This document shows positions 2,143 through 57,025 of a DNA stretch of 64,000 bases, piece by piece. The notes beneath the pieces are model-generated. The model worked only from the letters and a program-made list of their open reading frames with translations, was not told where the DNA came from and did not search any database. Position 1 is the stretch's first letter; each line of letters opens with the position of its first letter. The DNA is from Schmidtea polychroa (lineage: Eukaryota): contig CM097885.1 in NCBI GenBank assembly GCA_044892525.1, positions 33,854,001 through 33,918,000 of the forward strand, given 5' to 3'. A program made the position numbers and the translations under genes.

Positions 2143-4500
2143 TTAATCTTTGTATATGTGTTGACGATATATTTGGTAGCTGCTATTGATTGCAGCTACA
2201 CATGCTTTTTTGGCTAGCTCCTTTATTTCGTTATTGGATAGGCCAATAATTTTAAGTATAGAATTGTTACTTTTATCTCACGAACCAAGGGTACCAATTA
2301 CAAGGGCGTGTAATGTGTGTGGGCATTTATGGAGTCTACCAATTTCTTCGCCTAGTTCCTTATATTTATTATAGTTGTTTTTCCTAGAGTTGTCATAGTT
2401 TTCTCTGGAATCGAAAGGGACCTTAATGTCTAAGATATGTATGGCTTTATTTCGTTTGGATTTTAGGAGAAGATCAGGTTTAAGAGTAGAGTTGGTACCT
2501 TCCGGTATTTTCTCTATGTCTACTTCATAGTTGATAGAGATAAGAAAGTTTGCCACAGTTTCTAAGACATTGTCATGCTTATTTCGTCGTGCATTAATAC
2601 GTGCTTGGCAATGATTGAAGATGTGTGCAGGTGTTTCTGGGTGAGCATGGCAGTGTCGGCAGAGTATTGATTTATTAGTCTTTAGGCGGTGTGGTGAATA
2701 ATTCAGTTTTAGAATGTTGTTGCGTGCGCGAATAAGAAAAAGGAATTGGGCATTGGGAAGGATGTCACTTTTAAAGAAATAGTCGACAATGCTGCTTTCA
2801 CTAATTGCCTTTGCCATATAACCCTGGCACTTCATCGCACACCAACGTTCAGCATAGATGAGTCCAATAATAAAGTGTAGTTCAGATGACGTTCTATCTA
2901 CATTACCAAGGGAAAAATAATTGATACGACTCTTGTATTTTATTTCAAGCTGTAAGAGGTCCTCAAGCATTACTATTTTGGTTGATATACCGTATTGGTG
3001 GAGCAGACGTCGGGCGGATTTTTTAAATTTCGAGAAGATGGAGAAGGTTGGGTAGCTTTTAGATAGTTGGCCATTTAGCTAGGACAGTGCAACATTTAAA
3101 TCTCCCTGCCCTCTAGCCTCAATAAGTTCGCAAGTAATGAGATTCTTAAAGTTAAGATCACTGGAGTTTAATGCCCTAATAAACTGAACAATGCTTTGGA
3201 TAAGGTATTCGTCAATGGATGACACAAGTCCAAGACCGCCAAGTTTGCAAGGAAATTGTCATTCAGTTGCATTATCTTATCTCCGATGGATCTTTTAATA
3301 CCCTGTTTTATTTGCAGGTCGAATCCATATTGTTGTATTTCAGAGCTACGAAGGATGTTGCGTGGAGAGTCAAGAATGTTATGGTTAGTAACACAATTTC
3401 TAAAAGTAAAGTTCAAGCGGGAGTGGATGAAGACTTTAAAGGCGTTAATTTTTTGCGAAGGATGAAGATGAGAGTTGGGAATTTTGTTTGTGTCTTGAAT
3501 TGCGGAGTCTAGCCTTTCTTTGATGCAGTGTTTAGTTTTATGGGTGAAGTCTACCCCTAGATATCTGTACATATTAGAATCATAAATTTTTGGTAGGGTT
3601 TCGCCATAGAGTAGAATGGGTTGATAGTTGCAGTCGTGATCAACGTGGAAGTATCCAGATTTCGAGGGTTTAAAACGTAGGTTGACTTTTGTTGCAAGAG
3701 AAACAGTAAGAGATAGGGCCGATTTGATATTGGAGTAAGAGTCAGATATAAGCACTATATCATCAGCATATGCAAGAATGCTAATGTTGTGATTTCAGCT
3801 TTACCAGATTTAAGGATGAGTCGGGTGCGAAAGGATTTCCAGCAAACAGGAGATCTGGAGTTGCGTAGTATGTTGTTACATATAGCAAGGATGAGTTCAA
3901 AGTTAGGAGATATCTTTCTCCAATCGCTTAGAGAGATTTTATCAGTACCAGGGGCAGTATTGTCGAGCTGGCAGAAGATACTTTTAATATCATCAATGTC
4001 GAAGGGAGTGATGGTGAAGGATTAAGAGAGTGTTGGGTACTGATAGTTAAGGTCAGAGTTCGCTAATTGCTGTCAATAAAAAGTCTCCACTCTTCGATTT
4101 TGTACTGTGTAAACCCTAGTTTATGTAAGAGCTGTGCAATAGCAATGCACTACACCAGGTCATCTTTATTAAAAAAACGGGAGGTACCCTTCATGCTTGC
4201 TTCGGTAGAATGTGATGCAAGCACTATGAGAGAGAACGTTTTTGTCCTTTAGTCTCGATACAAACAGCTCAGCAATCGATTTGGGCTAGCTGAGATCACG
4301 AACAAGGTCAATAGGCTCATGTTGAGGAAACGGATGTAGAGCTTCATCGTCAGGAATTAATTCTTCTCCTTCATCTTCTTCAACACTGGAAGAGGAGGAG
4401 AATTCTTCGTCGATCATGTCGAGAAGATCATGAAATACAAGCACTGAAATCTCATCGCAGTAGGACATAGGACAAAGTGTTGTTTCCAGATCAGGAGCTT
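2143..4500 (-). mobile_element. Degenerate RLE-type non-LTR retrotransposon (NeSL/Utopia-like): RT, CCHC zinc knuckle, restriction-like endonuclease
   Basis: Minus strand: LAYADDIVLI at ~3775-3745 (RT), YRYLGV, CRHCHAHPETPAHIFNHC, RRNKHDNV, KPDLLL...ILDIKVPF, KYNKY, VIGTLGS*DKSN (GSW with TGG>TGA), SYQIYRQH before the stop at ~2143; several frameshifts and deletions. Confidence 0.9.
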
Positions 4501-4688: not shown

Positions 4689-5419
4689 TTAACATTTTAA
4701 TTTTAACTCCTCACAAGGATATTTGAGTAAGCTCCGGTTTTTCTTGTTTGTTCCAGTTACATCAATGACATAGAAGTAACAGTCAGTTGCATGGTTTGAA
4801 GGTTCCATCCAAACCACATGGATTATAAATGTTAAAGAACTCCTTGTTCTTTTAGTACACTGACGAAGAGGCTTTATCCAGGTCTTGCATATCATGTGAG
4901 GTGCCAAATTTTTAACTTGATCACCTAGCTTCATACCGAAGTATGAATGATAAACACGCTATTCAAAGTTGGTGACGGGATTCATGTTAGCAATATTAGT
5001 ATATTCACCACAGATATAGCAAAATACATCAGGTTTAATTTTACAAAATCTTCTACATGAAGCCATCTTTTCACTGCAACAACAATTGAATAAATAAAAG
5101 AACCAACTTGAATCTAAAGTTAAAAATGCATAGATATTATGCATATATATTTCACTTACTATTATACCGATGGCAAGCATAGACACGTAAAACGTTTTTC
5201 GAATCAAAATTAAAAAGCTCAAGAGCGAGTGCCGGATGATGGAGGTCACCTGATTCCAAAAACAGATCATGCAGAAGCAAAATTAAATAATCAATCAGGT
5301 TACAAATGCATACCACTCAATATCGAATGGATTTTAGAGCATTGAGGGTCCGGACTATCTTATACTCGGAAATTTTTTCATTAAATACATTATTTGCAGC
5401 AAAAGGATTAAATTATTAT

Positions 5420-5420
<1 letters not shown>
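4689..5420 (-). mobile_element. 5' part of the TcMar-m44-like transposon (N-terminal Cys/His domain)
   Basis: MASCRRFCKIKPDVFCYICGEYT (ATG at 5066), FGMKLGDQVKNLAPHMICKT, VWMEPSNHATDCYF; colinear with the 530-778 fragment; 5356-5420 is repeated at ~37818-37885. Confidence 0.75.
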
Positions 5421-5496
<76 letters not shown>

Positions 5497-20233: not shown

Positions 20234-23200
20234 GGTGGGTCGAAAGTTAATAAATTTTGAGTTCAAGAAAGGAAACATGGTTAAAAAGTTGTATTTTGGT
20301 ATAGAAAAATCGAATCAAACCATTTTACTTAGATTTATGGACATTTACTGCTCCCAACTTTTCTCCGAAAATGCAGTTCAACATAAGTGTGAAAACAATG
20401 TAATTTGGCTAGTGTCGGAATGTGTTTTGCGCCTTTGTCCATATTTAGATGTAGCTTTCTTAAGAGCTTATAAGTATATTATTTACTCTCTTGGGCTGAG
20501 ATAGTATATTCTGTGTCCTCATCCCGCATTGAAATATATCCTGACAACGTCAGTGATTAGGAAGGGCCAAATTTGAATTATCCTTTTCAAAGACAAAAAT
20601 CAACTTTCGAAATTATTTTTTATTAAAAACATCCAGCCAAAAGTTTAGAAATGTATTAGCGAGGGCATAAAAAGAAGTCACATGAAATCAGCTTTGCTTT
20701 GCACCTTGGGCAATTCCTTCCTTGATTTTTTACACAGTAGTACCATACCATGTCTGGACTTGTGACCAAACACTTTGCAACTGGCAGAAGAAACATCTTT
20801 GATGGCTCTTTCAACGGCTTGAGAATGACAGGGAAATTGTTCTAATGTAATTTTCTTATTCATCTTCAATTCATGATCCAATATATGAGATAAAAGAGGG
20901 GGAGGCGTCAAATTACATTTTGTCCAGTCAATCATGTCAACATATGATGTAGCAGACGACTGGAGAAAGACAGTATTCTTGTCCATAGTGCGAATCACTT
21001 CGGAAGGGAGAAAATTTTGTCTTGCAGTTATGATTTTTTCTGTTGCAAACTTTCTGATTTCTTCATCATCATCACCAACAGCAGCTAGGAGTATATTTTC
21101 TGGATGTGAGAAGTAATTGTTGTTCTGAATGACAGGAAAGATGATTTCTTGGTCTGATGGATCCAAATCCTGCAGAAGTTGGAGCATATAAAAAATATTT
21201 CTTGCACCATCTTGGCATGACGAGTGAGTCTTTATATAAAACCATGACGGTCCATAGTAATTGACAATAAATTTCACTATTCGCATGAGAGGTTCAGATG
21301 GAGCAGTTTCGGACATATATTGTCGCAGAATTCTATTAGCTTTCGTTAGCCAGCGACTGTGATTCAAATTTCCTGGTTGTGCCATTTGTAGAAAAGGGAC
21401 ATCCTTGTTGTTGTGGTACCCTTTCTGGACTGCCAAGCATACTCTGAGGAAATACAATTGATCAGTGTTCAATTCTTTCTTGACATTTTCACTAATATCT
21501 ACGACCTTTCCAGGAAGGGACATAAAGGCTACTACGGGCTTGTCTTTTGGATCAAAATCAAGAACGCTTCCTATTTCACCACATGACGTTTTTGGACCTT
21601 TTGTTTCTCCACCATCGACGACTGAAAAATACTTCCTGAATGGCAATTCATTTGCATGCAACAAGCATATCAGCCATTGTAGAGGTCGCCCTAGGCTTTT
21701 TTCGAGTCTTCTGATTATTCCATTATTTTTTCCGGTGTTTGTATTGGTTCCATCGCACACAATTGCTTGAAGGGTCAGTGAGGACTGCGTGCTAACGATG
21801 ATTGACATGATTTCTTTGCCAATATCCACAGCTTTACTACTTTGAGGTACAACATGATCGATATATGTATCCCCTGGAAAGGCGACAATCACATAATGCT
21901 CCTCTTTTAGGATCCTTCTATGAAGTAAGGTGGAATCTTGTTTCCCGTCGAAACCGAGGAAAATCAAGTTTTTCGCTTCTGCTGAATGCTGTTCAATTTC
22001 TCTCTCCCTCCAGTACTTTCTCTGACGCCGTAATTTTGCGGGATCGATGATTGTTTGAGAGGATAACAGTTCCATATCTTTCAGAAAAGCGTTTACTAGC
22101 AAACACGTGTCTCTGTTGCTCACACCACATCTGTCAACAGCTTTACTTAATTCAGGATAATGTCTTCTATTTTGAAATTCATCACATTCTTCTACGCTTG
22201 ACTCTGAGCTTTCTGTTGAATTGTCTAACTTATCTTTACTTTCATCACTAGCGGCTTCACTCTCCGTGTCACTTCTTGAGGTCGGATGTAGATCGTTAAC
22301 TTCAGTGTCCATTATTTCATTTTTCATTTGTTTTCCTTTTCCTGTAGGGCTGCTTTTCGTTTGTTTTCTCTTCAATTTTGAGGTTTCCTGTCTGTCCGTA
22401 TTTCCGATTTTCATGTTTCTGGTAGTTTGTTGGTCAATCCAGAACTCCCACTCTAAGGTAGGAATTTTCAAGGCCAATCGGCATGTACATTGACTTCTTC
22501 CATGAGCACCATCATTAAAACATTTGCAGCAACATATGTCAAACAATTTGGAAAACGAGCTTAACTTATCTTGAAATTTAGCAGATGACCTCTTGCATTC
22601 TGGATACTTCTCTAATTCACGCACTTTCGATACTAGTCGCTTGACACGAACCACAATACTACTGAACTCAACAGTTGGGATACTTGCCTTCATATAAATT
22701 TCCTTCACCTTATTTGCGAGAAGAGTTGCTTGTTCGTTAAAGCCAGTATGAAATTGCGTACATTTCTCATTGTAACAGTAATCACGAAACACATCTTCAC
22801 AAGTAGGTAATTGGTTTCTGGGTAGTTCACAAGTTTGACCAAACAGACAATGACGTGATTTACTTCTTGTTTTGCGAAATTGCTTATTTCTCTGTCCCTT
22901 CATAACTGCTCTTCTGTACTCAGCTCTGGCAAAATAAAAGTGAATCATCAAGTTAACTTTTTTAATTAGGTCCAGCAAACACTTGACATCCAATCGAAAC
23001 AAATTAAATTATCTGAGTTTAGACTGACTAGTAGTATCCATGTGGATTATGTGTTGACTGTAGTGTGTGTGTTAGTATTGTTCAGAAGAAATTGTCTTTG
23101 TGAGTGCTTGTGTGAAGGTGCTTCCGTGAATTAACCTCTCTATACATGCACGCGTTAGCTTGGACTTGTGAATAGAGCATGTCAAAAATGGTCTTTCTGC

Positions 23201-33653: not shown

Positions 33654-34375
33654 CATTTTGTACGTTAATTTTTGGATCAAATGACTTTATTAATAACGCT
33701 TCACAAATTACACATTCCCAATAATTATTGAAATTTTTTAATAAAATCTTTAAAATCAGAAATAATTAGTTTTCTCTAATAGTCATTATTGTGCTCACTA
33801 ATATTGGTCAATGCATTCGATCTTTAATGTTCTCGAGCTCGAATACAGAGATGACGAGAAGTCTCTTCAATGTATGTGTCATTACACCTATTACATGTAA
33901 ATTGATAAACTAGATCAGAACACAATCCAAATGGAGATTTAAACTTATTGATAAACATATTGCGTACTTTACATGAAATTGACACAATCTGATAGTTTAA
34001 ATTTCCCACATGTTTGCTTATCTTTCTTTTATAATCTGTAAAACATTTTGGGTGCGGCATTACCTTACACTCACTATTTAATTATTTTAACTCACTCACA
34101 CCACCCGAATTATACCATATTTTCTCAAACATGGATCCTTAAGAATTTTAATTAATGTATCAACATACTCTTTTATCATAATTAATAAAAAAGATTTTAA
34201 ATTAGGATTCGTCATTAACACTCCAACCAATTTATCAATATCTTTTACTGAATTTAGAAAATTCGAAGACATAGACCATGAACGATAAATCAATCCTTTC
34301 GCCATATTTCTCTTAGGCTTGAATCCACAAAAACTTTCGGGCGAAGTATAGAGACCAGTATCAGTTGGTTTTCAT
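33654..34375 (-). mobile_element. Penelope-like element remnant (RT thumb plus GIY-YIG endonuclease)
   Basis: KPTDTGLY...KGLIYRSW, LVYQFTCNRCNDTYIEETSRHLCIRAREH, ICEALLIKSFDPKINVQ. Confidence 0.88.
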
Positions 34376-37599: not shown

Positions 37600-37795
37600 A
37601 TGCCGTGGTTGCCAAAAAGAGGTGCAAAGCTTTAGTAGACTCAGGGTGCTCGAAGATCTGATCTATGCAGTGATGTATCAGGAGGACACGAAATTGCGGT
37701 TGTTGTTGGGCAGGTAATATGATGCATTGGTGAAGCACTAGTTATTATTCACATAGGAGAGTCAGATTTTAAGGTAAGATCATTGCTAATGAATA
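37600..37795 (+). mobile_element. LTR retrotransposon aspartic protease remnant
   Basis: AVVAKKRCKALVDSGCSKI* carries the DSG catalytic motif. Confidence 0.55.
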
Positions 37796-39089
37796 AATGA
37801 ATAGAGATTGACAAGAACATCTTATAGTCGAAATTTTTTCATTAAATACAATATTTGCAACAAAAGGCTTAAATTATCATTTTATTATTTAATTACTATG
37901 TGTAACAATATTTCAATTTTAAAAACAACGAAATTTTTGAAATATATTTTTATTAGTGAATATGAGCAATGAAGTGACAACTCAAATCATTCCAACTGAT
38001 GTTCATGTTGCAGTGAGAGAGTGAGTATTTTTTATTATAAATAAAAATTTTAAATTAATTTCTTTATATAAGAAAAGTACCAATGCCGAAACTTCATCTT
38101 GAAGACAGCAGCTCAAATGAAGATTTCAACGAAATTTGTGACATGCTAGAAGATCTTACTGAATTGTTGGATAAAGAAGTCTCTCGAAACCCTAGATAAA
38201 AAATTGTTTTTATAAATGTATTATCCACAGATGTAATGTTATTTAACAAGATTAATTTTTGATAGTTTTTTCAATTTACTTTAAATGAAAACAAAAAAAG
38301 GGTAGCGCTGAATTAACTTCCGGATTAGTTCTGTTTAAAATTTTGAAATAAATGAGATTTTTGTTTACTGACATGACCACTGAATGGAACCTTTTCCTCG
38401 TCAATCATTATAACTTTTTAATTGATATTGTTATTTCTTCGTGCCAGAATTAAAATCATATTATTGCACTTTAGATGCTGACCATGAATTTTCGATAATA
38501 GCTTTTAATATATATTTGGATTTTGTACATTTCAAAACTCTTCAAAGAGAATAAAATTTTTAATGGTTGAGAATGACTTTTTGTTGATGTTTCTTAATAT
38601 TTCACAATAACATTAGGTTGTTCTTGAGACCTTCCTGTAACATAAGAGTAAAAATAGTTCTATGCAATTTCAATTGAGTTGATAAAATATGTATTTCAAC
38701 TTTTTCAACCGAAGTAAGAGTAAATTTTGCCAAACCGCGTAAAGGGGTAGAATTTAGTAATCTCTTTTTTATATTTAAATTTGATCAAAAATTTACGATT
38801 ACAGTATTATTCAAAGTTATAAATTTTATTTTTAGGTTTAAAAAAATACCCTTATAGTGGAACGAAAAAGTATTACATTGACTAATGAGATTCACAATTT
38901 AGTCATTAATAATACTAACTCTGCAAATAAGCCTTCGGTTATCGCTTCTTCAGTTATATTAAGCATTAGTTCAGTCAGAGATATGTTAAACAAGCAACAA
39001 GAAGGGATTGGTAGTTTCATCTGACTCAAAAGATGAAAGAAACATGGGATAGGAAAAACTCAATTCTATCCGATCTAGAAAACGTCTTG

Positions 39090-39232: not shown

Positions 39233-41260
39233 TGTAATCAAAATAATGACTGAAATTATATTACCTATAAAATTATCACATATTAAATATTTTTAAATTA
39301 TTTTAAATCAAATATTTTCACTTATTAAGCCCAGTAGGTAAAACAGGTACACATAAGTATCTTTAATATTCAACTGGATCCAATGGCACCTCCTGAATCA
39401 TGGATAATATTTCTAATAATACATTTCAAAATTTAATTTCTTTCTCAATTTAGCTGCTTTTTACGAAACTTGATGTTTCTTGAATACTGATCCTTGAACT
39501 TCTCATTATTTTAAATCAACTTGATACATTTTATTTTTCGTTTTTATTTTAAAATATCAGTTAAGATAAACTCGCAAATTTTATTAAATTTTGATAATAA
39601 ACAAAAATCAAAATTAGTGTGATTAAAAAATCTCATTCTTTAACTATTCCATATTTTTTTAACTCTTTAATTTGATCCTCTATTTTGTCTATCAGATAGG
39701 CTGGTTTTTACCTTGAATATAATTTTTGGTTTACATGAAGTAATAATTTCATGTTTTATAATATCAGTTTTTCCTATATATATATATTTTTTCCCCATAT
39801 CGTTTTTTTCGTGTTTTCCCCATATCGTATTTTTTAACTAAGTTGGTTATTATTACTGTGTTTAAATCTCACTACTTTATCCATTAAATTTATATATTTT
39901 GCAATCTCTACATTTTTATTATCTATTTCTAATTTAATCCAGAATTCTTCTAAAAAGTTCATTACACCAGTTAGTTTAAATGAAATTTCATCAGCAACAT
40001 AAATACAATATTTTGGTATACATTTATATCCGCGCGCCCACAACCGCGCCGTTAATAACCGCGCGCTCTATATCGCGGTATTGTTTTATTTGGAGGTTTT
40101 ACAAAATTAGCAAGGAGCGTGGTTTAACTGTGTAAACCAAGTGTTAATTGTATTCATTAAATTAGCAATTATTAAATTAACATGCTTAATTTAACTTGAT
40201 CCTAACAACAATGATGGAGGTTAACCCTTAGTTGAACAAAGACATGATAAAAAATACTAACATTATTTACCATTATTTAAAAACCCTTATAGTAAACAAC
40301 GAAACGCTTCATGTTTCCCCTGATCAGTAGTACTTTAAAGGAATATTATTTTTATAATTCACATCATGGACATAGACAGACAAAACATTTATGGTACAAA
40401 TAAATAAAGTTTAATTGAATTTTAATTGAATTGAGAATACTTGGAAACGATATTGAGTTCCAAGTGAGAGGAAGTCTTCGCTTAATGTATAACGCAAATT
40501 ATAATCGACTTTTTTGGATTCATGCTATTTGAAATATATTATCAATCTCGTATTCTTTCGAAAGATTTTGATAATTTTAGACAAACTTCTCCAGATTTTT
40601 ATCACAAACCCTAAAAACTCAGACAATATTAAACTTTTAATTAAAATGTTCAGTAATTTATGTTTCAGTAAATAAGATAATTTTTTTCAGTAAAAGAGAT
40701 TATATAGTGCAAAGTAAACATTTTTTTAGTCAATATATTATCAAAAATAAACAGTAAAACAAGGCTTACGGGCAGGGGTTAGGATAATTTATTTAAAAAT
40801 TACTGAACATTTTAATCCAATTACTGAACGGTTTATCCAAAATGCTGAATATTTAAATCACACTTTTTAGATTTAAACACGGAACCATACCTTCAAATCT
40901 TTTTCGCGGACTAATCTTCCTGTATATATTGCACTGGGTATCATAAAGCTTGTACTTTATATTATATAAATGTTAGACATCCCTTAAAAAATATTTACAC
41001 CATTACTTTAAAAGTTTAAAATGCTAAAGGTAATCGGATGCACTTGTAAACAGTTTCTGTTTAGAGACTAATTTTTTAGTCTGCAGAGGTGATTATGATT
41101 TTTCATACGCCATGTTTACAAGTTTGCAGATTTTTTGTGTGAATTAGCTAATTTTCAAGTGATGTGATTTCCAGTGTACCAGGGAAAGTAAGCAATAGAG
41201 TTGAATCAACAATATTGTATACTTACCTGGCGCAAAGAGAAATCTTCGCGTCTCCTGCAC

Positions 41261-41298
41261 AGTGCCGATAAGAGCCAAAAGCTCGAAACTAGTCTGCT
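41261..41298 (+). ncRNA. Degenerate minimal type I hammerhead ribozyme motif
   Basis: AGTG-CCGATAA-GAGC caaaa GCTC-GAAAC-TA-GTC-TGCT: core CUGAUGA with 2 substitutions, perfect stem II, GAAA, palindromic ACTAGT stem III, GUC site, stem I AGTG/TGCT (two G-U pairs). Confidence 0.6.
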
Positions 41299-42083
41299 AT
41301 TGGGATTTGCACTGGATATCACAAAGCTTGTACTGTTATATTATAAGAACTTTTTTTTCCAATTTCACCACTTAATTTTTTCCATTGTATTTATTAAAAA
41401 GAGCTTCAAGACTATAAATCAGTTAATATATCGATGTTTTTGATATTCACGAAATTTCGGCACAGCCTTTTTCAAGTGAAATTCTATATTCGTTAGATAT
41501 TACGACACTGCAAAAAGTGAACTATCTCATCCAGCGTACCAGTGTAGAGTTATTATCACTAAAAACATACATTTACACCTGATGGCAAAACAATGTTGTG
41601 AGGCCATTGTTCCTCCAACCCTTCTGTCACTAAAAAGGTTATCATAAAATATGTTAAAAACATTATATTTTCGATTTTCTTCAAATAATTTTCGTTTACG
41701 ATTAATTTTTCTAAATTTGGGATCAATTAAAAATAATAATAATTAACTGCAAATTTTTTTTAAATGTAAAAAAATTTAAAAACAAACAGCAAGAATAAAA
41801 TGAATTGTAGTTATGTAGTAAAACAAATAATAAATAATATTAATAATATTAATCACATTAAAAAAATAATTTTTAGAATTTTTTTTGACTATTGAGATTA
41901 CTGAATATTTTTTTGAGCCGCATATAGTATATATATTATGTAAAATTATGGGAACCGCAGAAAGTTATTGAAAGAGCCACATGCAGCTAATGACCACGGA
42001 GCATTCAAAAAACAAAATTTATTGAAATACAAATTCTTGATTTTGTAGACAAAAAGACCTTATCACAATTATGCACTAATAAA

Positions 42084-43970: not shown

Positions 43971-44671
43971 TCAAAACGAAGAATTAAGCTTTGATTACGA
44001 ATTAAAATAAAATTTCGGACTCCTATATATGTTAATAGAAATTTTATTTTTAATTATATATATTGGTATTAAAATATACGAATTATCGGCACAGCCTTTT
44101 TCAAGTGATTTTAAAATCGCTTGAAAAAAAAAGCTGTGCCGAAAGTTCGTCAATATCATAAAAACAACATCGATATCTTTAATGGCTTTTGAAAAAATTC
44201 TCATATATATATATATATAGATTTTCAAAATTAATATTAAAAATTTCAAGAAATTTCCTAGATCCTTTATTAGTTACTGATTGTCAAAATATATAATCAA
44301 AAATTTCCAAATATTGCAAACCCCAGATGACCTTATACTAAATGTCAATGTATAAAACCTCTTTAAACAATTCAGTTATTAATTAACAAAGTTTCAATGA
44401 TAGAATAAACGTCATTTATACATTTCATAACAACTGCTTACTTATTAATAGCATTGTATTCTTAAAAATTAAAAGTGTATTATGGAATATTTTGTTTCAT
44501 TTTATACGTCTACGAATTACCAATATCTAGCAGGGATGAGGGTTGAGTAAATGATAAGATAGGCATTTGCTGCAAAATGTTTATTAAGTGAGAATTTTTC
44601 TGATTATAAGATAATCATTTTCAAAGCATAATATATTTAATTCAAATTTTACAATTTTATTAATGACTGAC

Positions 44672-49723: not shown

Positions 49724-50587
49724 CTAAACAAATTGATTTTGTAAACATAACGTAATATGAAATATATGAATTATTATTCACAGGTTTTGACAAATAATAT
49801 TAGAAATATTTATTTTATTTTTGTGATAAAAACAGATTTGGAATCCTCTAAAATAAGTAAGATACATCGATGCCCAACCTTCATAAAGAAACTGAGTACA
49901 CTCAAAAGCCAAACCGATACATCATTCATTTTATTAGTAGAATATCATAATTATAAATCGTTTATATTCTTCAGCTTTTATTTGTTTTCATTTAAAATGT
50001 GGTTCATCTACATTTCTTTCACAATATCCGGAACTGATTTTTTCAAATTCATACGAAATATTCGTGTCAAATAGAAAACAAAACATTCATCTGCTGTTTG
50101 AAAGAAATTAAGATAAAGGAAATAATAATTTCATCCTGTTTTAGGTGAGAGCAGAATCGGTCAGCAATTTTATGGCAGCCAATCTGTTAATGATCTATCA
50201 GACCCATAGGGATTTATTAATGGTTATCAATATTAATTTATTAATAACCCTTAAAATCTATAAACATTAAATGAAAATGTGTGAAAGAAATTATAATTAA
50301 AAAGAAATAAAATAATTTGACACGTAGGATTCAGTTCATTTTGCAAAATACTATAATTTTTACGTTTCCTTTAAGACTATTTTGCGTTTAATGTCATTCT
50401 TGTAAATCATAATTAAAGTGATTATTCATTATTAAAGTGAAAATTCACTTGAAAAAAAAACCGAAATTTCGTGAGTATCAAAAAACATTGATATATTACT
50501 GATTTACAGTCTTCAAGCTCTCTTTTTAATAAATTCAATGGAAAAAATAATCAGTGGTGCAATTGGGGAAAAGCATGCGGATTTGTA

Positions 50588-50870: not shown

Positions 50871-52009
50871 CCTAATATCGCTTAGTCACAAGCTCTCATT
50901 ATATTCAGTAACAACAGAGGAAACTCAGATTTAATATTTAAATTAATGCATCAAAAGTTGAACATTGGGCAAGAATTGATTTCGGTCAAAAATCACATTA
51001 AATATGGAATAATTAGACTCGACTACTGCGGAAAATTTATTCATTTAGACCTAAAATTTCAGTTAACATTTTTTCCGCTGCCAAGTTGTTTGTGCTTACA
51101 TGATCACCTCAATTCTTTAAACATATTATTTGGATACTATTTGTGTTCCATCGTTTTCCAAAGATTTAATATTCTCTATAGTTAGTATAATCTAAGTACG
51201 GTATATTAGTGAGTAAGATACCATCAGTCGATCTAATACCCAATCTAGATTATATATATGTTAGATGGCAGGAGCAGAATTATCGAGTATTTTCAGCTTG
51301 AAGAAAACTTTAGAAAAGGCCTTAACAAATATAGGGTCTATATATTCATTATATATATTATATAAAAAATAAATTATGATTTGGAAAAAAGAAAATAATA
51401 TCAGAAATATAGGTCAGAAAGCAATCCAGTGCCCAATAAACAATTATCTGACTATTTACATTTAATCATTCGTTTGAATTTAATTATCTTTCGTGTACTT
51501 TTTTATTTGTTTATTCAATTGAATAATGTAGTTAGTCATTTTTATATAGCTTTTATTTGATTTCTTAACACGAAACGTAAAAACATAAAGGGAAGGGTGG
51601 GGCAACTAGAAAGTAATACAATAATTTATAAATAAATTTATTTTCATTTTTCACAAATTATGTATACATGCATTTTAACTTCGCATTATATTTTTCAGAA
51701 TTCAGTTAGATTATGTCGATTATATGGGTATGTTTTCTCTTTGGGTGGGATTCCCCGAAATAAACATAAAGTAAAAATGTAATGTACTTTGTATGCAATT
51801 TAGTTTGGTTTTGAGAATTGAAAAGAAAAGACGTTTAGTTGTTGTGAATGTTTAACAAGTTATAAGTAAAATAAGGGGCTCGTATAAATTTATTAATTCT
51901 GCTCGTATAGATTTATTAACCCAATAACAGGTAAGTTTTAAATAACTTTCAAATCTTTGTATTATTAATTATAATTATAGATTTAATTTATTTTGGTAGC
52001 CTTAACATA

Positions 52010-53561
52010 ATGTCACATAATTCATCTGTAATAAAAATGAAGAGGAAATTGATCAGTTTAGATACTAAAATTAAAATTTTAGATCAACTTGCAACAGGAC
52101 AAGGTGCAACGGCTGTAGGAAAGCATTTTGGTATTCACGAAGCTACCATAAGAACGATTAAGAAAAATGAAACTGCGATTAGAAAATTCATATGTTCTGG
52201 AACAAAAATAAGTGCTAAATTATCACCATACATAAGAGATGTTGTCAAAGAGAAAATGGAAAAAGCTTTGATAGTATGGATTGAAGATAAATCACAAAAA
52301 AGAATACCAGTAGACGGAATTACTATCAAGCAAACAGCATTAAGAATCTATAAACGTATTAAAGAACTTGAGCCAGGCACTTCATCTCAGTCAAACAAAA
52401 TATTTGAATTTTCTGCAAGTATAGGTTGAATGACAGGTTTCCTTAAAAGGCATGCTCTCCACAATGTAAAAATTATGGGAGAAACTGCATCTGCAGATGA
52501 ATTGTCTGCTAAAGAATTTCCTTAAAAACTTAGAAAAATTATACACCCCAGATCAAGTTTGGAATGTAGATGGAAGCGGCCTTTTTTGGAAAAAAATGCA
52601 TAGCAGAACTTATGTTGCGAAATCGCAGAAAACTGCCGGTGGTTTTAAAGTAGCAAAGGACCGTGTTACATTGTTGATTTGTTCCAATGCTTCAGGAGAA
52701 TGTATGTTAAAACCACTGCTAGTAAATCGTGCCTTAAGACCACGTTCAATGAAAGGTGTAGATTTCAATAAATTTCCAATTCACTGGATGGCAAACAAAG
52801 ATGCTTGGGTGACGACTGCAATCTTTACAGAATGGTTTCTGAAGTACTTCGTCCCAGAAGTTAGACGATACATGAATGCAAAATGTTTAGAATTTAAAGT
52901 TCTTTTAATTCTAGATAATGCACCTGGCCATCCGGTCTTGGAGCACCCAAATGTGCAATTTTGTTTTCTACCGTCTAATACTACATCCTTAATACAACCT
53001 TAATACAATCATTAATGGCATCTTACAGAGAACTTTATAATGGTTTAACACGAAACCAAACACAATATTTAATAACTGATTTCGTTCTAAAAATTTCTGA
53101 ATTATCAACACAGGAGACTAGTGATAATAATACAAAAATAATTTCCCAAGACGATAAACAAAATAATTCGAGTGATAGCAGTGATATTGCAGTCTTACGC
53201 AAACGTATACGTGTGTCAGAAAATGACAATGAATAAAGATTTGTTATTTTATATTATTTTGACTTTTATTATATTAATGAATTTCTGATATTATTTTCTT
53301 TTTTCCAAATCATAATTTATTTTTTATATAATATATATAATGAATTAAAATGTGTAAGCACGAAAAATAAATTCTTTTGTGAACTCTAACAAGGATTTTT
53401 TTATATTTATTATTATACTTTTGTTGCCTTTTTAGGTATGGAACCAATCTACTATTTTTCCGTTCAGCCAATATCGTTTTTCACATGAATTCTTTTACAC
53501 GAATTTCTTTTTACACGAATTATTTAGGAACGTATCTATTGTGTAAAAACAGAATTAGGTG
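52010..53561 (+). mobile_element. Tigger/pogo transposon, degenerate (TIGD1-like) with right TIR
   Basis: KRKLISLDTKIKI (CENP-B N-terminal HTH), MEKALIVWI, FSASIG*, GETASAD, WNVDGSGLFWKKM, KDRVTLL, KAWVT-like, LLILDNAPGHP, NTTSLIQP; end AATTAGGTG|TA. Confidence 0.93.
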
Positions 53562-54340: not shown

Positions 54341-55364
54341 TACATTCTTTCGTTTTCGGTGATATATTTAGCTAATATATGATTTAATGAGCATAGCTCG
54401 TGAAATAAATCGTCACCTTGTGATTCGATGTCCACGTTTTTTATTTATTTGACGATAAATCGAAGTGGCAGTCCAATAAAGATACAACCCGGACATTTTT
54501 ATATATTATAAAAACTTTTTCCAATTTTAATCATTGATTTCTTTTCAATTTACATTGTACTTATTAATAAACTTGACTATGAATAAGTAAATATATCGGT
54601 TTTTTTTGATATTCACGAATTTTCGGCACTGGCTTTTTCAAGTGATCAAAATCATTATAATCCAGTCATTCATATTACATAAATGATCACTTAAAATTTT
54701 TGATCGTCTTAATAAATCATATGCAATCACTTAAATTAGAGATTTGGTCACTTAAATTACTGACTTGATCACTTTTAATAAAGAAAGCTGAGCACTTAAA
54801 TTTTGTTGGGTTTTTGCACTTTTAACTTGTAGTACTCATTGATCAATTCTTTAACTCGAGGATGAATCACGGTTTTAGCTTACCTTCCGCCACTGCTCTT
54901 TCATTGATCACTTCGTGGTCGTGCATATAAGTAGATAGCATGGTTTGAACAGTCTTATCAGTGCCAGAGTAGTTGAGTTTTAAAAAGGATTCACATTGTG
55001 GTCCTCTCCACCAATTGTGGCTGTTTTTTGGCTATTAAATGTACATAATCGATTATAGACCTTTCTTTTTCGCTTCTGCTGTTGTTGTTGTTAACATACC
55101 TCTACGTCTGATTTATCACTTTGATAATTTGTCACTGGTTGAACGATCATTTTTGTAATCACTTTCAAATTAATAGTATCGGCAAATCAAAATTAATGAT
55201 CACAATTAATAACATTTCTACGTTTGCTCACTTTCAAATTAATAGTATCGGTAATTCAAAATTAGTGATCACAATAAATTACATTTTAATTAAATTAAAA
55301 GCCCAATTATGAAATTTATGAGAGAAATTTAATAAAAAAGAAGTGACCTTTTTTAATTTAAGTG

Positions 55365-55456: not shown

Positions 55457-57025
55457 GGATTCCATTACCGGTAATACAGAAACCGGTATTACCGGTTTTT
55501 GATGAAAACTACATCTTCGGTATTACCGGTATTACAAAATAAAAATCCGGTAATTACAGAAATTAAATTTTTTTACCTTTTGTCACAATGAAAATAAATG
55601 GAATACCATAATAAAAGAAAACAGATCAAGGTGACAAAAAAATAATTTAATAATTTGCATTTGTGATAAATGTCAGATAATAACATTAATCTTTATTGCA
55701 TTTTCTCAATACTTAAAATAATAAAACACCAAAGAGAAAGAACATTCACCGAAATTTTTTTTGGATTTTTATTAAATATAAAAATTTATGATACTTGGAA
55801 ATTTTTTAATTGTTACACTGCGATTTTGTTAATATTCTGGGATTTTAAAGATACAATAAAACCATAAAAATGGCATACATTTTAGCTGCGAATATACATT
55901 TCGATTCATTATCGATTTGAACCTAGATTTTGCATTTAATCAGGCTGAATTAAAATTATTGCACGATATTATATCCGCTTTGCAGTCAGTAAAAGTTGTG
56001 GTGGAAGCTCTTTGCGGATCAGATATTAATTTACTTTCTGCAGATGTTGTATTAATATTCATGTTAGATGAATTAACTGCATTGAACAACGCATTAAGCA
56101 TCAAATTAAAAAGTGAACTTGTTTACAGAATACAAGAAAGAAGAACAAGTTATTCGAAAGTCTTACAATTTCTACACAACCCAGAACAACAAAATCACAA
56201 TGATCACAGAATATTTAAATTACCTTCGAAAACAACGATAACCAAATGACGAGGAAAATGAAAATTCTTTTGCTCATTAAAAGAAAATTTATATAAAAAA
56301 ATGTATCAAAATCTTCATTATAATGTGCGAAATGAAAGAGTAAATAAAAGCTCGAATTTACAAACGACGATTCGCAAAGAAATGAAAACTTTTTGCAAGG
56401 AAAACATTCGTGGTAAACATTTAGAAATGGTTTACCAATATTTAAAAACCATTCGTCCTACTAGTGTAGAATCCGAGAGAGCCTTTTCAGCCGCAGGATT
56501 AATTTGCACGAGAATAAGGTCTAGGTTAGCGGACGAAAGTTTTGATACATTGTGTTTTTTAAAATCCCATTTTAATACAAAAAAATATTGTAAATAAATT
56601 CATTCTATTTTTTTTCTGTTTCTTTTTATAAAATATTTTGATTTAATAAACGTAATGTAATGATTTGAATGTATGTATTGTAATAATGTAATAATTAGTT
56701 TTAATAAATTGTTTGACCTCATTGTTATTCAATTTTATCGATTAATAAAACATTTTCAAAAAAATTGTATTGTGTATCTTTTATAAAATTTAATAAGTTT
56801 ATTGATTATGAAAGTAATTAACAATTAACTAACGTAAATTATCAAATTAATTAATTATTAATAACCAATAGTTAACAAATTAATGATAAATGAAACAATT
56901 TGGAGAATTAATAATAGAAGTTGAATAAAAGACGGTATTACTGGTAAAAACCGGTAATACCGTCGATAGAAATAATTTTTTCGGTAATACCGGTATTGCA
57001 AAAGTCGGTATTTTTGGAATCCCTA
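55454..57025 (+). mobile_element. TAGGG-ended hAT (hATx-type) internal deletion derivative
   Basis: TIR TAGGGATTCCA / TGGAATCCCTA; ATATATAT on both flanks; multiple ACCGGTAATAC subterminal motifs; transposase remnant VEALCG...RPTSVESERAFSAAG...RSRLADE..LCFL. Confidence 0.9.

Follow-up and report, generated by a model that had tools for sequence, protein, structure and literature searches.

A hammerhead-bearing repeat with a U1-like tip in the genome of Schmidtea polychroa, a likely non-LTR retrozyme

How does the 5' end of U1 snRNA come to lie within 80 nt of a GAAA-capped hairpin and a hammerhead ribozyme? The three motifs occur in a 64,000-nt stretch of contig CM097885.1 of Schmidtea polychroa (assembly GCA_044892525.1, positions 33,854,001 to 33,918,000, forward strand; hereafter the window, in whose numbering positions are given), where a first-pass annotation had described them as a structured-RNA cluster. 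According to the evidence presented below, they probably make up the ribozyme domain of a non-coding repeat of 378 nt, here in one damaged copy, whose intact hammerhead core occurs 873 times or more in this genome. The repeat is likely a non-LTR retrozyme that owes its copies to a Penelope-like reverse transcriptase (RT), and its U1-like tip was likely captured from host U1 RNA by a template switch.

The window copy and its hammerhead

The copy occupies positions 40929-41345 (about 417 nt, or about 1.1 units) and is about 90% identical to young family copies across that interval. It is a partial tandem, with a 38-nt terminal direct repeat at 40929-40966 and 41307-41344 on the plus strand, as are all its parts described here. 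Its 3' end (41337-41345) falls in the main cluster of family ends, 42 to 53 nt beyond the predicted cut site, and by positions -115/-113/-110 it belongs to the oldest of three larger subgroups. Just upstream, 40908-40928 faintly resembles the end of a preceding unit's hammerhead, and the copy may cross the upstream cut site in decayed form. The genome measures 781 Mb, and the window belongs to its contig C1; GC content in 2-kb bins of the window is 20-37%. No host gene was identified around the copy among the 33 of 45 frames of at least 90 aa that were scanned, which yielded transposon domains only. Transposon remains elsewhere in the window comprise an RT with a zinc-binding domain at 2281-3794 (-), a GIY-YIG relic at 33791-33940 (-), a pogo/Tigger-like DDE domain at 51935-53000 (+) and a hAT relic at 55860-56594 (+); a 776-codon open frame at 20681-23008 (-) has no Pfam match.

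The first-pass annotation had correctly placed the U1-like 13-mer (41219-41231), the GAAA hairpin, the hammerhead core with its helices and the cut-site C; these motifs are, however, parts of a single folded domain of one repeat copy rather than three neighbours. The domain is predicted to span 41171-41315, closed by 41171-41178 pairing with 41308-41315, its coordinates being transferred by alignment from the fold of a young copy (L030:1490-1866; z-score -8.65, with none of 100 shuffles as good). Within it, the 5' arm of hairpin P1 (41179-41197) is complementary to 41213-41230 and thus to U1-like nt 1-12, the U1-like segment as a whole covers 41219-41237, and nt 12-19 of that segment form the 5' arm of the GAAA-looped hairpin P2 (41230-41251). 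The type I hammerhead, recognized by sequence pattern and alignment, follows at 41253-41305. It consists of the core CCGATAA (41265-41271), helix I (41259-41264/41295-41300, with a distal part at 41253-41257/41301-41305), helix II (41272-41284) and the stretch GAAAC-TA-GTC (41285-41294), which contains the palindromic 2-bp helix III (41288-41293) and ends in C17, with cleavage predicted after 41294.

In the family as a whole, the hammerhead has helices I, II and III of 6, 4 and 2 bp, a C3-G8 core with the conserved core residues in place, and a palindromic helix III for which a duplex of -6.2 kcal/mol was computed. This is the canonical metazoan type I layout, which in the account of PMC4209133 is thought to work as a dimer when helix III is palindromic. 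The earlier assignment to the minimal subtype has to be dropped, as there is no extra base before G10.1. The minimal hammerheads of Penelope-like elements would need a helix II of 7-8 bp, an extra base between A9 and G10.1 and a short helix I, as outlined in PMC4209133, against 4 bp, none and 6 bp here. An Rfam search, which had been suggested as a check, found neither hammerhead nor U1 at E<=10 between 38000 and 45000, and thus no hammerhead at the window copy. Intact copies do match Rfam Hammerhead_HH9, albeit at 24-26.5 bits with a cut-off of 52. The HH9 consensus has a larger internal loop that loop 1 of the family lacks, and cleavage may therefore be weak; among hammerhead dimers of Xenopus, eight of nine tested are reported without cleavage in bioRxiv 10.64898/2026.07.22.740005.

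The window copy carries two core changes, U4C at 41266 and G8A at 41270, and its helix I is weakened too. Since U4 and G8 are established requirements of the hammerhead core, its ribozyme is likely inactive, and the copy itself is probably an ordinary dead insertion. It had been suggested that the copy is a decayed representative of a mobile family with a ribozyme, and hundreds of paralogs bear this out: in a 30-sequence alignment these restore CUGAUGA and a Watson-Crick helix I. Helix positions are paired in 83% of cells, as against 31-43% in slid controls. The covariation expected for helix II is nearly absent (one cell with a double change); the compensatory change lies in helix I instead, where one pair is G-C in 10 of 22 sequences and A-U in 5 of 22, a swap between this family and the sister family described below. 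Covariation counts overall were barely above those of shuffled alignments (7/500 and 28/500), a level that kinship alone could yield.

Copies, insertion ends and a candidate helper

The exact intact 30-nt hammerhead core was found 873 times in the genome and not once in the control; leaving helix II free raised the count to 1357. The U1-like 13-mer occurs 1676 times (356 + 1320), with 1 and 0 hits for reversed-pattern controls, where chance would give about 8 in the genome and 0.0006 in the window; its presence is thus not a matter of chance. With 41180-41340 as query, 1122 candidates were obtained, and the 40 that were scored are 93-100% identical. The unit is 378 nt long, and tandem periods are 383, 378 and 371 nt (L045, L030 and L046). 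Tandem copies are dimers and one trimer, the longest array seen having three cores (L045), and most copies are dispersed and shorter than one unit. The three larger subgroups consist of 51 young copies with 1.2% divergence, 23 middle-aged copies, and 18 old ones with 4.9%.

Insertion ends were examined for 96 exact cores, drawn from the first 100 in the list, of which three more served as the reference. Terminal 3' ends (n=87) lie at AT-rich sites, 56 of them at +42 to +53 and 23 at +74 to +93 from the predicted cut, and 30 of the 87 have a microsatellite within 30 nt downstream; (ATT)n flanks recur at copies, and any target-site duplications are masked by the microsatellites. The 5' ends (n=87) are ragged, from -33 to -378, some apparent ends being internal deletions, and directly upstream of 21 of them lies an inverted piece, a count made without a control comparison. 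Nine of the 96 cores run on beyond the previous cut site. As every core-bearing copy spans the cut site and the 3' ends lie beyond it, the RNA that is copied would be circular or an uncut multimer. Circles have been proposed as templates (PMC4209133), and the same pattern of ends, inverted 5' pieces, partial tandems and microsatellite targets is described for Penelope-like insertions in PMC8557442. In one copy, a run of (AAT)n is followed by a sense-oriented piece of large-subunit rRNA (28S; 156.7 bits; L008:1381-1500) that is joined to the repeat at the 5' junction, a fusion that would fit a template switch by the copying enzyme.

In the contig set X2, three contigs tile the unit from end to start, and the end-to-start joint recurs in X4 and X6, as tandem DNA would also produce. 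None of the sequence sets listed as containing the repeat is on record as RNA; X1, X2, X4 and X6 consist of contigs that are RNA only by guess, and their depth was given no weight as evidence. In metagenome contigs, a U1 motif together with a hammerhead core was found at 118 loci at least; seven among the matches listed have three or more helix II pairs, and none of these, judged by eye, has a GAAAC-nn-GUH helix III, so that these matches were set aside as chance.

A search for GIY-YIG domains returned 2572 candidates, of which 150 were scored and 45 loci examined; 44 of the 45 match one or both of two Penelope-like queries. L100, L101 and L102 (on contigs C4, C2 and C1) represent a young Penelope-like family with open frames of 776-856 aa and a cysteine-rich linker before the GIY-YIG domain. 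The frame at L101 encodes RT and GIY-YIG domains over 856 aa, six others are 98-99.5% alike in the last 200 aa, and the copies of this family, like those of the repeat, stop at TTTAT followed by (ATT)n or (AAT)n. An element of the L101 type is thus a candidate helper, and only a candidate, since the terminal DNA of the two Penelope-like families seen is unrelated to the repeat unit. Near their 3' ends, L100-L102 have a U3-A8-type hammerhead-like motif, and pieces of their 3' UTR lie in the window at 37792-37890 and 5352-5438.

We also considered an origin of the copies as terminal repeats, since truncated, of some autonomous Penelope-like element still to be found, in place of a separate non-autonomous element. 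The insertion anatomy would be expected from such an origin, being the same as that of the Penelope-like elements of PMC8557442, and the loci read are 45 of the 150 scored from among 2572 candidates. Among these 45, no autonomous element has a terminal repeat matching the unit; the unit occurs at three of them, as separate insertions only. In copies exceeding one unit (L045, L030 and L046), each unit is followed directly by the next in head-to-tail order, and coding DNA does not intervene. We regard this origin as improbable and prefer a separate non-autonomous repeat.

Fragments of a further Penelope-like family also lie close by. Outside the repeat and tail to tail with it, 41384-41479 on the minus strand is a 3'-end fragment of the L103 type (87% identity over 98 nt to the DNA following the L103 RT/GIY-YIG frame), with a U3-A8-type hammerhead-like motif. 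Other fragments of this type lie at 44050-44182 (a fold-back hairpin sharing the motif), 50445-50532 and 54575-54658. Downstream of a Penelope-like 3' end at L079/L107, a third hammerhead-like motif was noticed, with a C3-G8 core, a 5-bp helix II and an AT-only palindrome.

The U1-like tip and the tRNA-headed sister family

The likeness to U1 is real and extends further than the 13 nt first reported, to 15 nt in the window copy and 16 nt in the family. The family tip is identical to host U1 genes in the first 16 of 16 nt and to a U1 variant from a tandem array in 18 of 19. The chance of a 16-nt U1 match is 5e-8 per unit, and that of nt 13-16 given nt 1-12 about 1e-3. A U1 gene or pseudogene was rejected as explanation, as the likeness ends at nt 16-19 and the window copy has no Rfam U1 match. 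In the predicted fold of the circular monomer (-127.6 kcal/mol), 18 of the 19 U1-like bases are paired, with an unpaired probability of at most 0.15, nt 1-12 with the upstream P1 arm and nt 13-19 within hairpin P2. Compared with neighbouring parts of the repeat, the U1 part is no better kept within the genome (3-7% against 2-8%). The U1 piece is most likely a captured relic of host U1, now buried by pairing. Its capture by template switch is plausible given the single copy with 28S rRNA fused at its 5' junction, albeit the event itself cannot be demonstrated from present copies.

Host U1 genes are themselves diverse. Several quite different variants (L031-L036, L043 and L044), some beginning with AAACUUACUUGG or AAACUAACCUGG, are present; variants are grouped with U5 genes on contig C1, whereas C4 has a tandem array with a repeat length of 1.77 kb and two variants in each unit. 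Within the U1/U5 cluster, L033:679-697 (-) is a 19-nt relic of a U1 5' end, which matches the tip of the repeat at 18 of 19 positions before its own U1 likeness stops. Upstream of U1/U2 genes, ATGCAA at -69 to -67 is a candidate snRNA promoter element (L033, L035, L036, L044, L063 and L066), and U5 genes (L388-L392) have a TATGTAA motif a few bases further upstream than that site.

An older sister family has the same hammerhead helices II and III and a tRNA-like head in the slot of the U1 piece. It was reached from six genome matches with a longer loop II and comprises 236 candidates, of which the 40 scored are mostly 75-86% alike; its loci include L368-L387, L037, L040-L042 and L104 (for instance L378:1500-1640, minus strand). 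With the established A- and B-box motifs of Pol III promoters as patterns, a B-box-like motif stands directly before the hammerhead in 14 of 19 sister copies (8 of 133 control segments) and an A-box-like motif occurs in 8 of 19 (9 of 133), both boxes being found at a spacing of 42-51 nt in five. No Rfam tRNA match was obtained in nine sister loci, and ARAGORN at a relaxed threshold called a tRNA in 5 of 20 (two of them duplicates) among 45 mostly noisy calls. The U1-tipped unit has no A/B-box match and contains six runs of four or more T.

An alternative is that the U1 tip is functional and kept by selection. It might mark where a transcript begins under a captured promoter of the snRNA type, or it might imitate U1 and bind 5' splice sites whenever the fold is open. 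That the U1 piece occupies the slot of a tRNA-like promoter head is in line with a promoter role, and an snRNA-type promoter is also attributed to newt satellite 2 (as cited in PMC2220036). TGCAA lies at -65/-66 of the U1-like start, near where ATGCAA is found in 6 of 13 partly non-independent U1/U2 upstream sequences; the chance for that slot is about 1%, estimated post hoc. However, TGCAA is absent from the more diverged copies L049, L239 and L244, none of five U5 upstream sequences has it, and the 5' ends of copies do not cluster at the U1 start: 3 of 87 lie within 5 nt of it, 68 further upstream and 16 downstream. A figure of 4 of 22 copies, from a set picked for a non-standard base at -2, had pointed to U1 +1 as the RNA start and was discarded in favour of the core-only set with its 3 of 87. 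Burial of 18 of the 19 bases and their ordinary conservation inside the genome likewise speak against function. Some support comes from X6 contigs of organism B, guessed to be RNA, whose relatives of the repeat cover only L030:1535-1650. No change in them amounts to 1% of depth at 1537-1564. Positions 1565, 1566, 1568 and 1570 in the partner arm of P2, by contrast, carry near-fixed changes, loop II differs and the upstream DNA is not alignable. An unchanged U1 tip facing differing partner strands, for which these contigs offer a weak indication, would fit poorly with a purely structural role. Against this, the contigs were filtered at 80% likeness, which favours a match, seven of them are at least 99% like organism A, and about nine tenths of the hammerhead depth stops short of the U1 part. 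Selection on the tip is, on balance, unlikely, though it deserves to be kept in mind. An equally low weight is given to a broader scheme, in which one hammerhead module swapped heads between two cellular RNAs, the old family having a tRNA-like head of the Pol III kind and the young one a U1 5' end, and in which the tip would be kept across species because it acts as an snRNA-type transcript start or as a switchable U1 mimic through which an abundant circular RNA pairs with splice donors.

The likeness might, on the other hand, be a by-product of splicing signals, an inverted copy of a strong Penelope-type intron donor supplying the first 12 letters and chance the rest. The donor would lie near -113 and the acceptor AG at the start of helix I, where the repeat indeed has a pyrimidine run with YAG; in Drosophila virilis Penelope, the intron reaches up to where helix I begins on its 5' side (PMC4209133). 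P1 pairing extends 6-7 nt past U1 +1, as a fold-back would, and CAG|GT stands in the 5' arm of P1 in the 23 copies of one subgroup. The donor-like GT is, however, missing from the youngest (51 copies) and oldest (18 copies) subgroups, the predicted spliced junction has no match in the genome with one mismatch allowed, and no GT..AG was found among contig joints. The minus-strand donor reading already raised in the first-pass annotation holds as far as the complement of U1 nt 1-11, and leaves the match at nt 13-16 (p about 1e-3) and the 18/19 identity to the second U1 variant unexplained. We consider such an origin a poor candidate and prefer capture from host U1 RNA.

Relation to known ribozyme-bearing elements

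By structure and genomic behaviour the repeat is, as read from its DNA, a non-LTR retrozyme. It shares with metazoan non-LTR retrozymes a non-coding unit in the 170-400 nt range, one type I hammerhead per unit, low GC, strong self-pairing, head-to-tail copies and the presence of Penelope-like elements in the genome (PMC7229834; bioRxiv 10.64898/2026.07.22.740005). It differs from these retrozymes, as far as described there, by its mostly dispersed partial copies and its U1 5'-end segment, and is known here from DNA. It resembles Penelope pseudo-LTR hammerheads in its weak, palindromic helix III, which suits cleavage as a dimer, and in copies that are truncated at the 5' end, carry inverted pieces there, form partial tandems and lie at microsatellites (PMC4209133; PMC8557442); unlike these, as portrayed in PMC4209133, it has no linked ORF, and it combines a canonical 6/4/2 layout with a C3-G8 core. 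The hammerhead-like motifs of two Penelope-like families in this same genome are of the U3-A8 type, as opposed to C3-G8 in the repeat.

The alpha elements of schistosomes, Sm-alpha and Sj-alpha, are likewise flatworm hammerhead repeats with a small-cellular-RNA head (PMC2770079; PMC2220036), Sm-alpha being described as tRNA-Gln-related in PMC2770079. The sister family (L368-L387) resembles them most, whereas the U1-tipped family, as compared with the Sm-alpha of PMC2770079, lacks Pol III A/B boxes before the ribozyme and has the U1 piece in that slot. In SINEU of crocodilians, U1-derived sequence was also added to a retroposon; U1/U2 capture by template switch was proposed and the promoter was given as unknown (PMC4494074). 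In SINEU the snRNA part stands at the 5' end as a head, and the sections consulted mention no ribozyme. Here the U1 piece, 16-19 nt long, lies inside a permuted unit, and pairing is predicted for it. A 5' snRNA head of the SINEU type was rejected for the repeat, with 68 of 87 copy ends upstream of the U1 piece and 3 at it. Newt satellite 2, as cited in PMC2220036 and PMC7229834, is also a repeat of the retrozyme type whose hammerhead acts as a dimer; what is reported for it is an snRNA-type promoter (PMC2220036), unlike the likeness to U1 RNA itself found here. No publication on this repeat family or on U1 pieces in retrozymes was found in a search mainly of the open literature, and the supplements of PMC4209133, PMC7229834, PMC8557442 and bioRxiv 10.64898/2026.07.22.740005 may list the family.

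We propose the following life cycle. In tandem transcripts, two hammerheads would pair through their palindromic helix III and cut themselves as a dimer, and the monomers would be ligated into circles. With a circle or an uncut multimer as template, the enzyme would then prime at AT-rich sites and copy across the cut site. The U1 piece, later buried by pairing, would now be mainly structural.

For animal retrozymes in general, the mode of transcription and the mobilizing enzyme are open questions. This one genome offers two related families with different small-RNA heads, of which the young one counts hundreds of near-identical copies. It also has intact Penelope-like frames that are young and share the target repeat, which makes the questions of promoter, helper and circle directly testable. 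A functional U1 tip would mean that a selfish RNA is equipped with the very end of U1 that reads splice sites.
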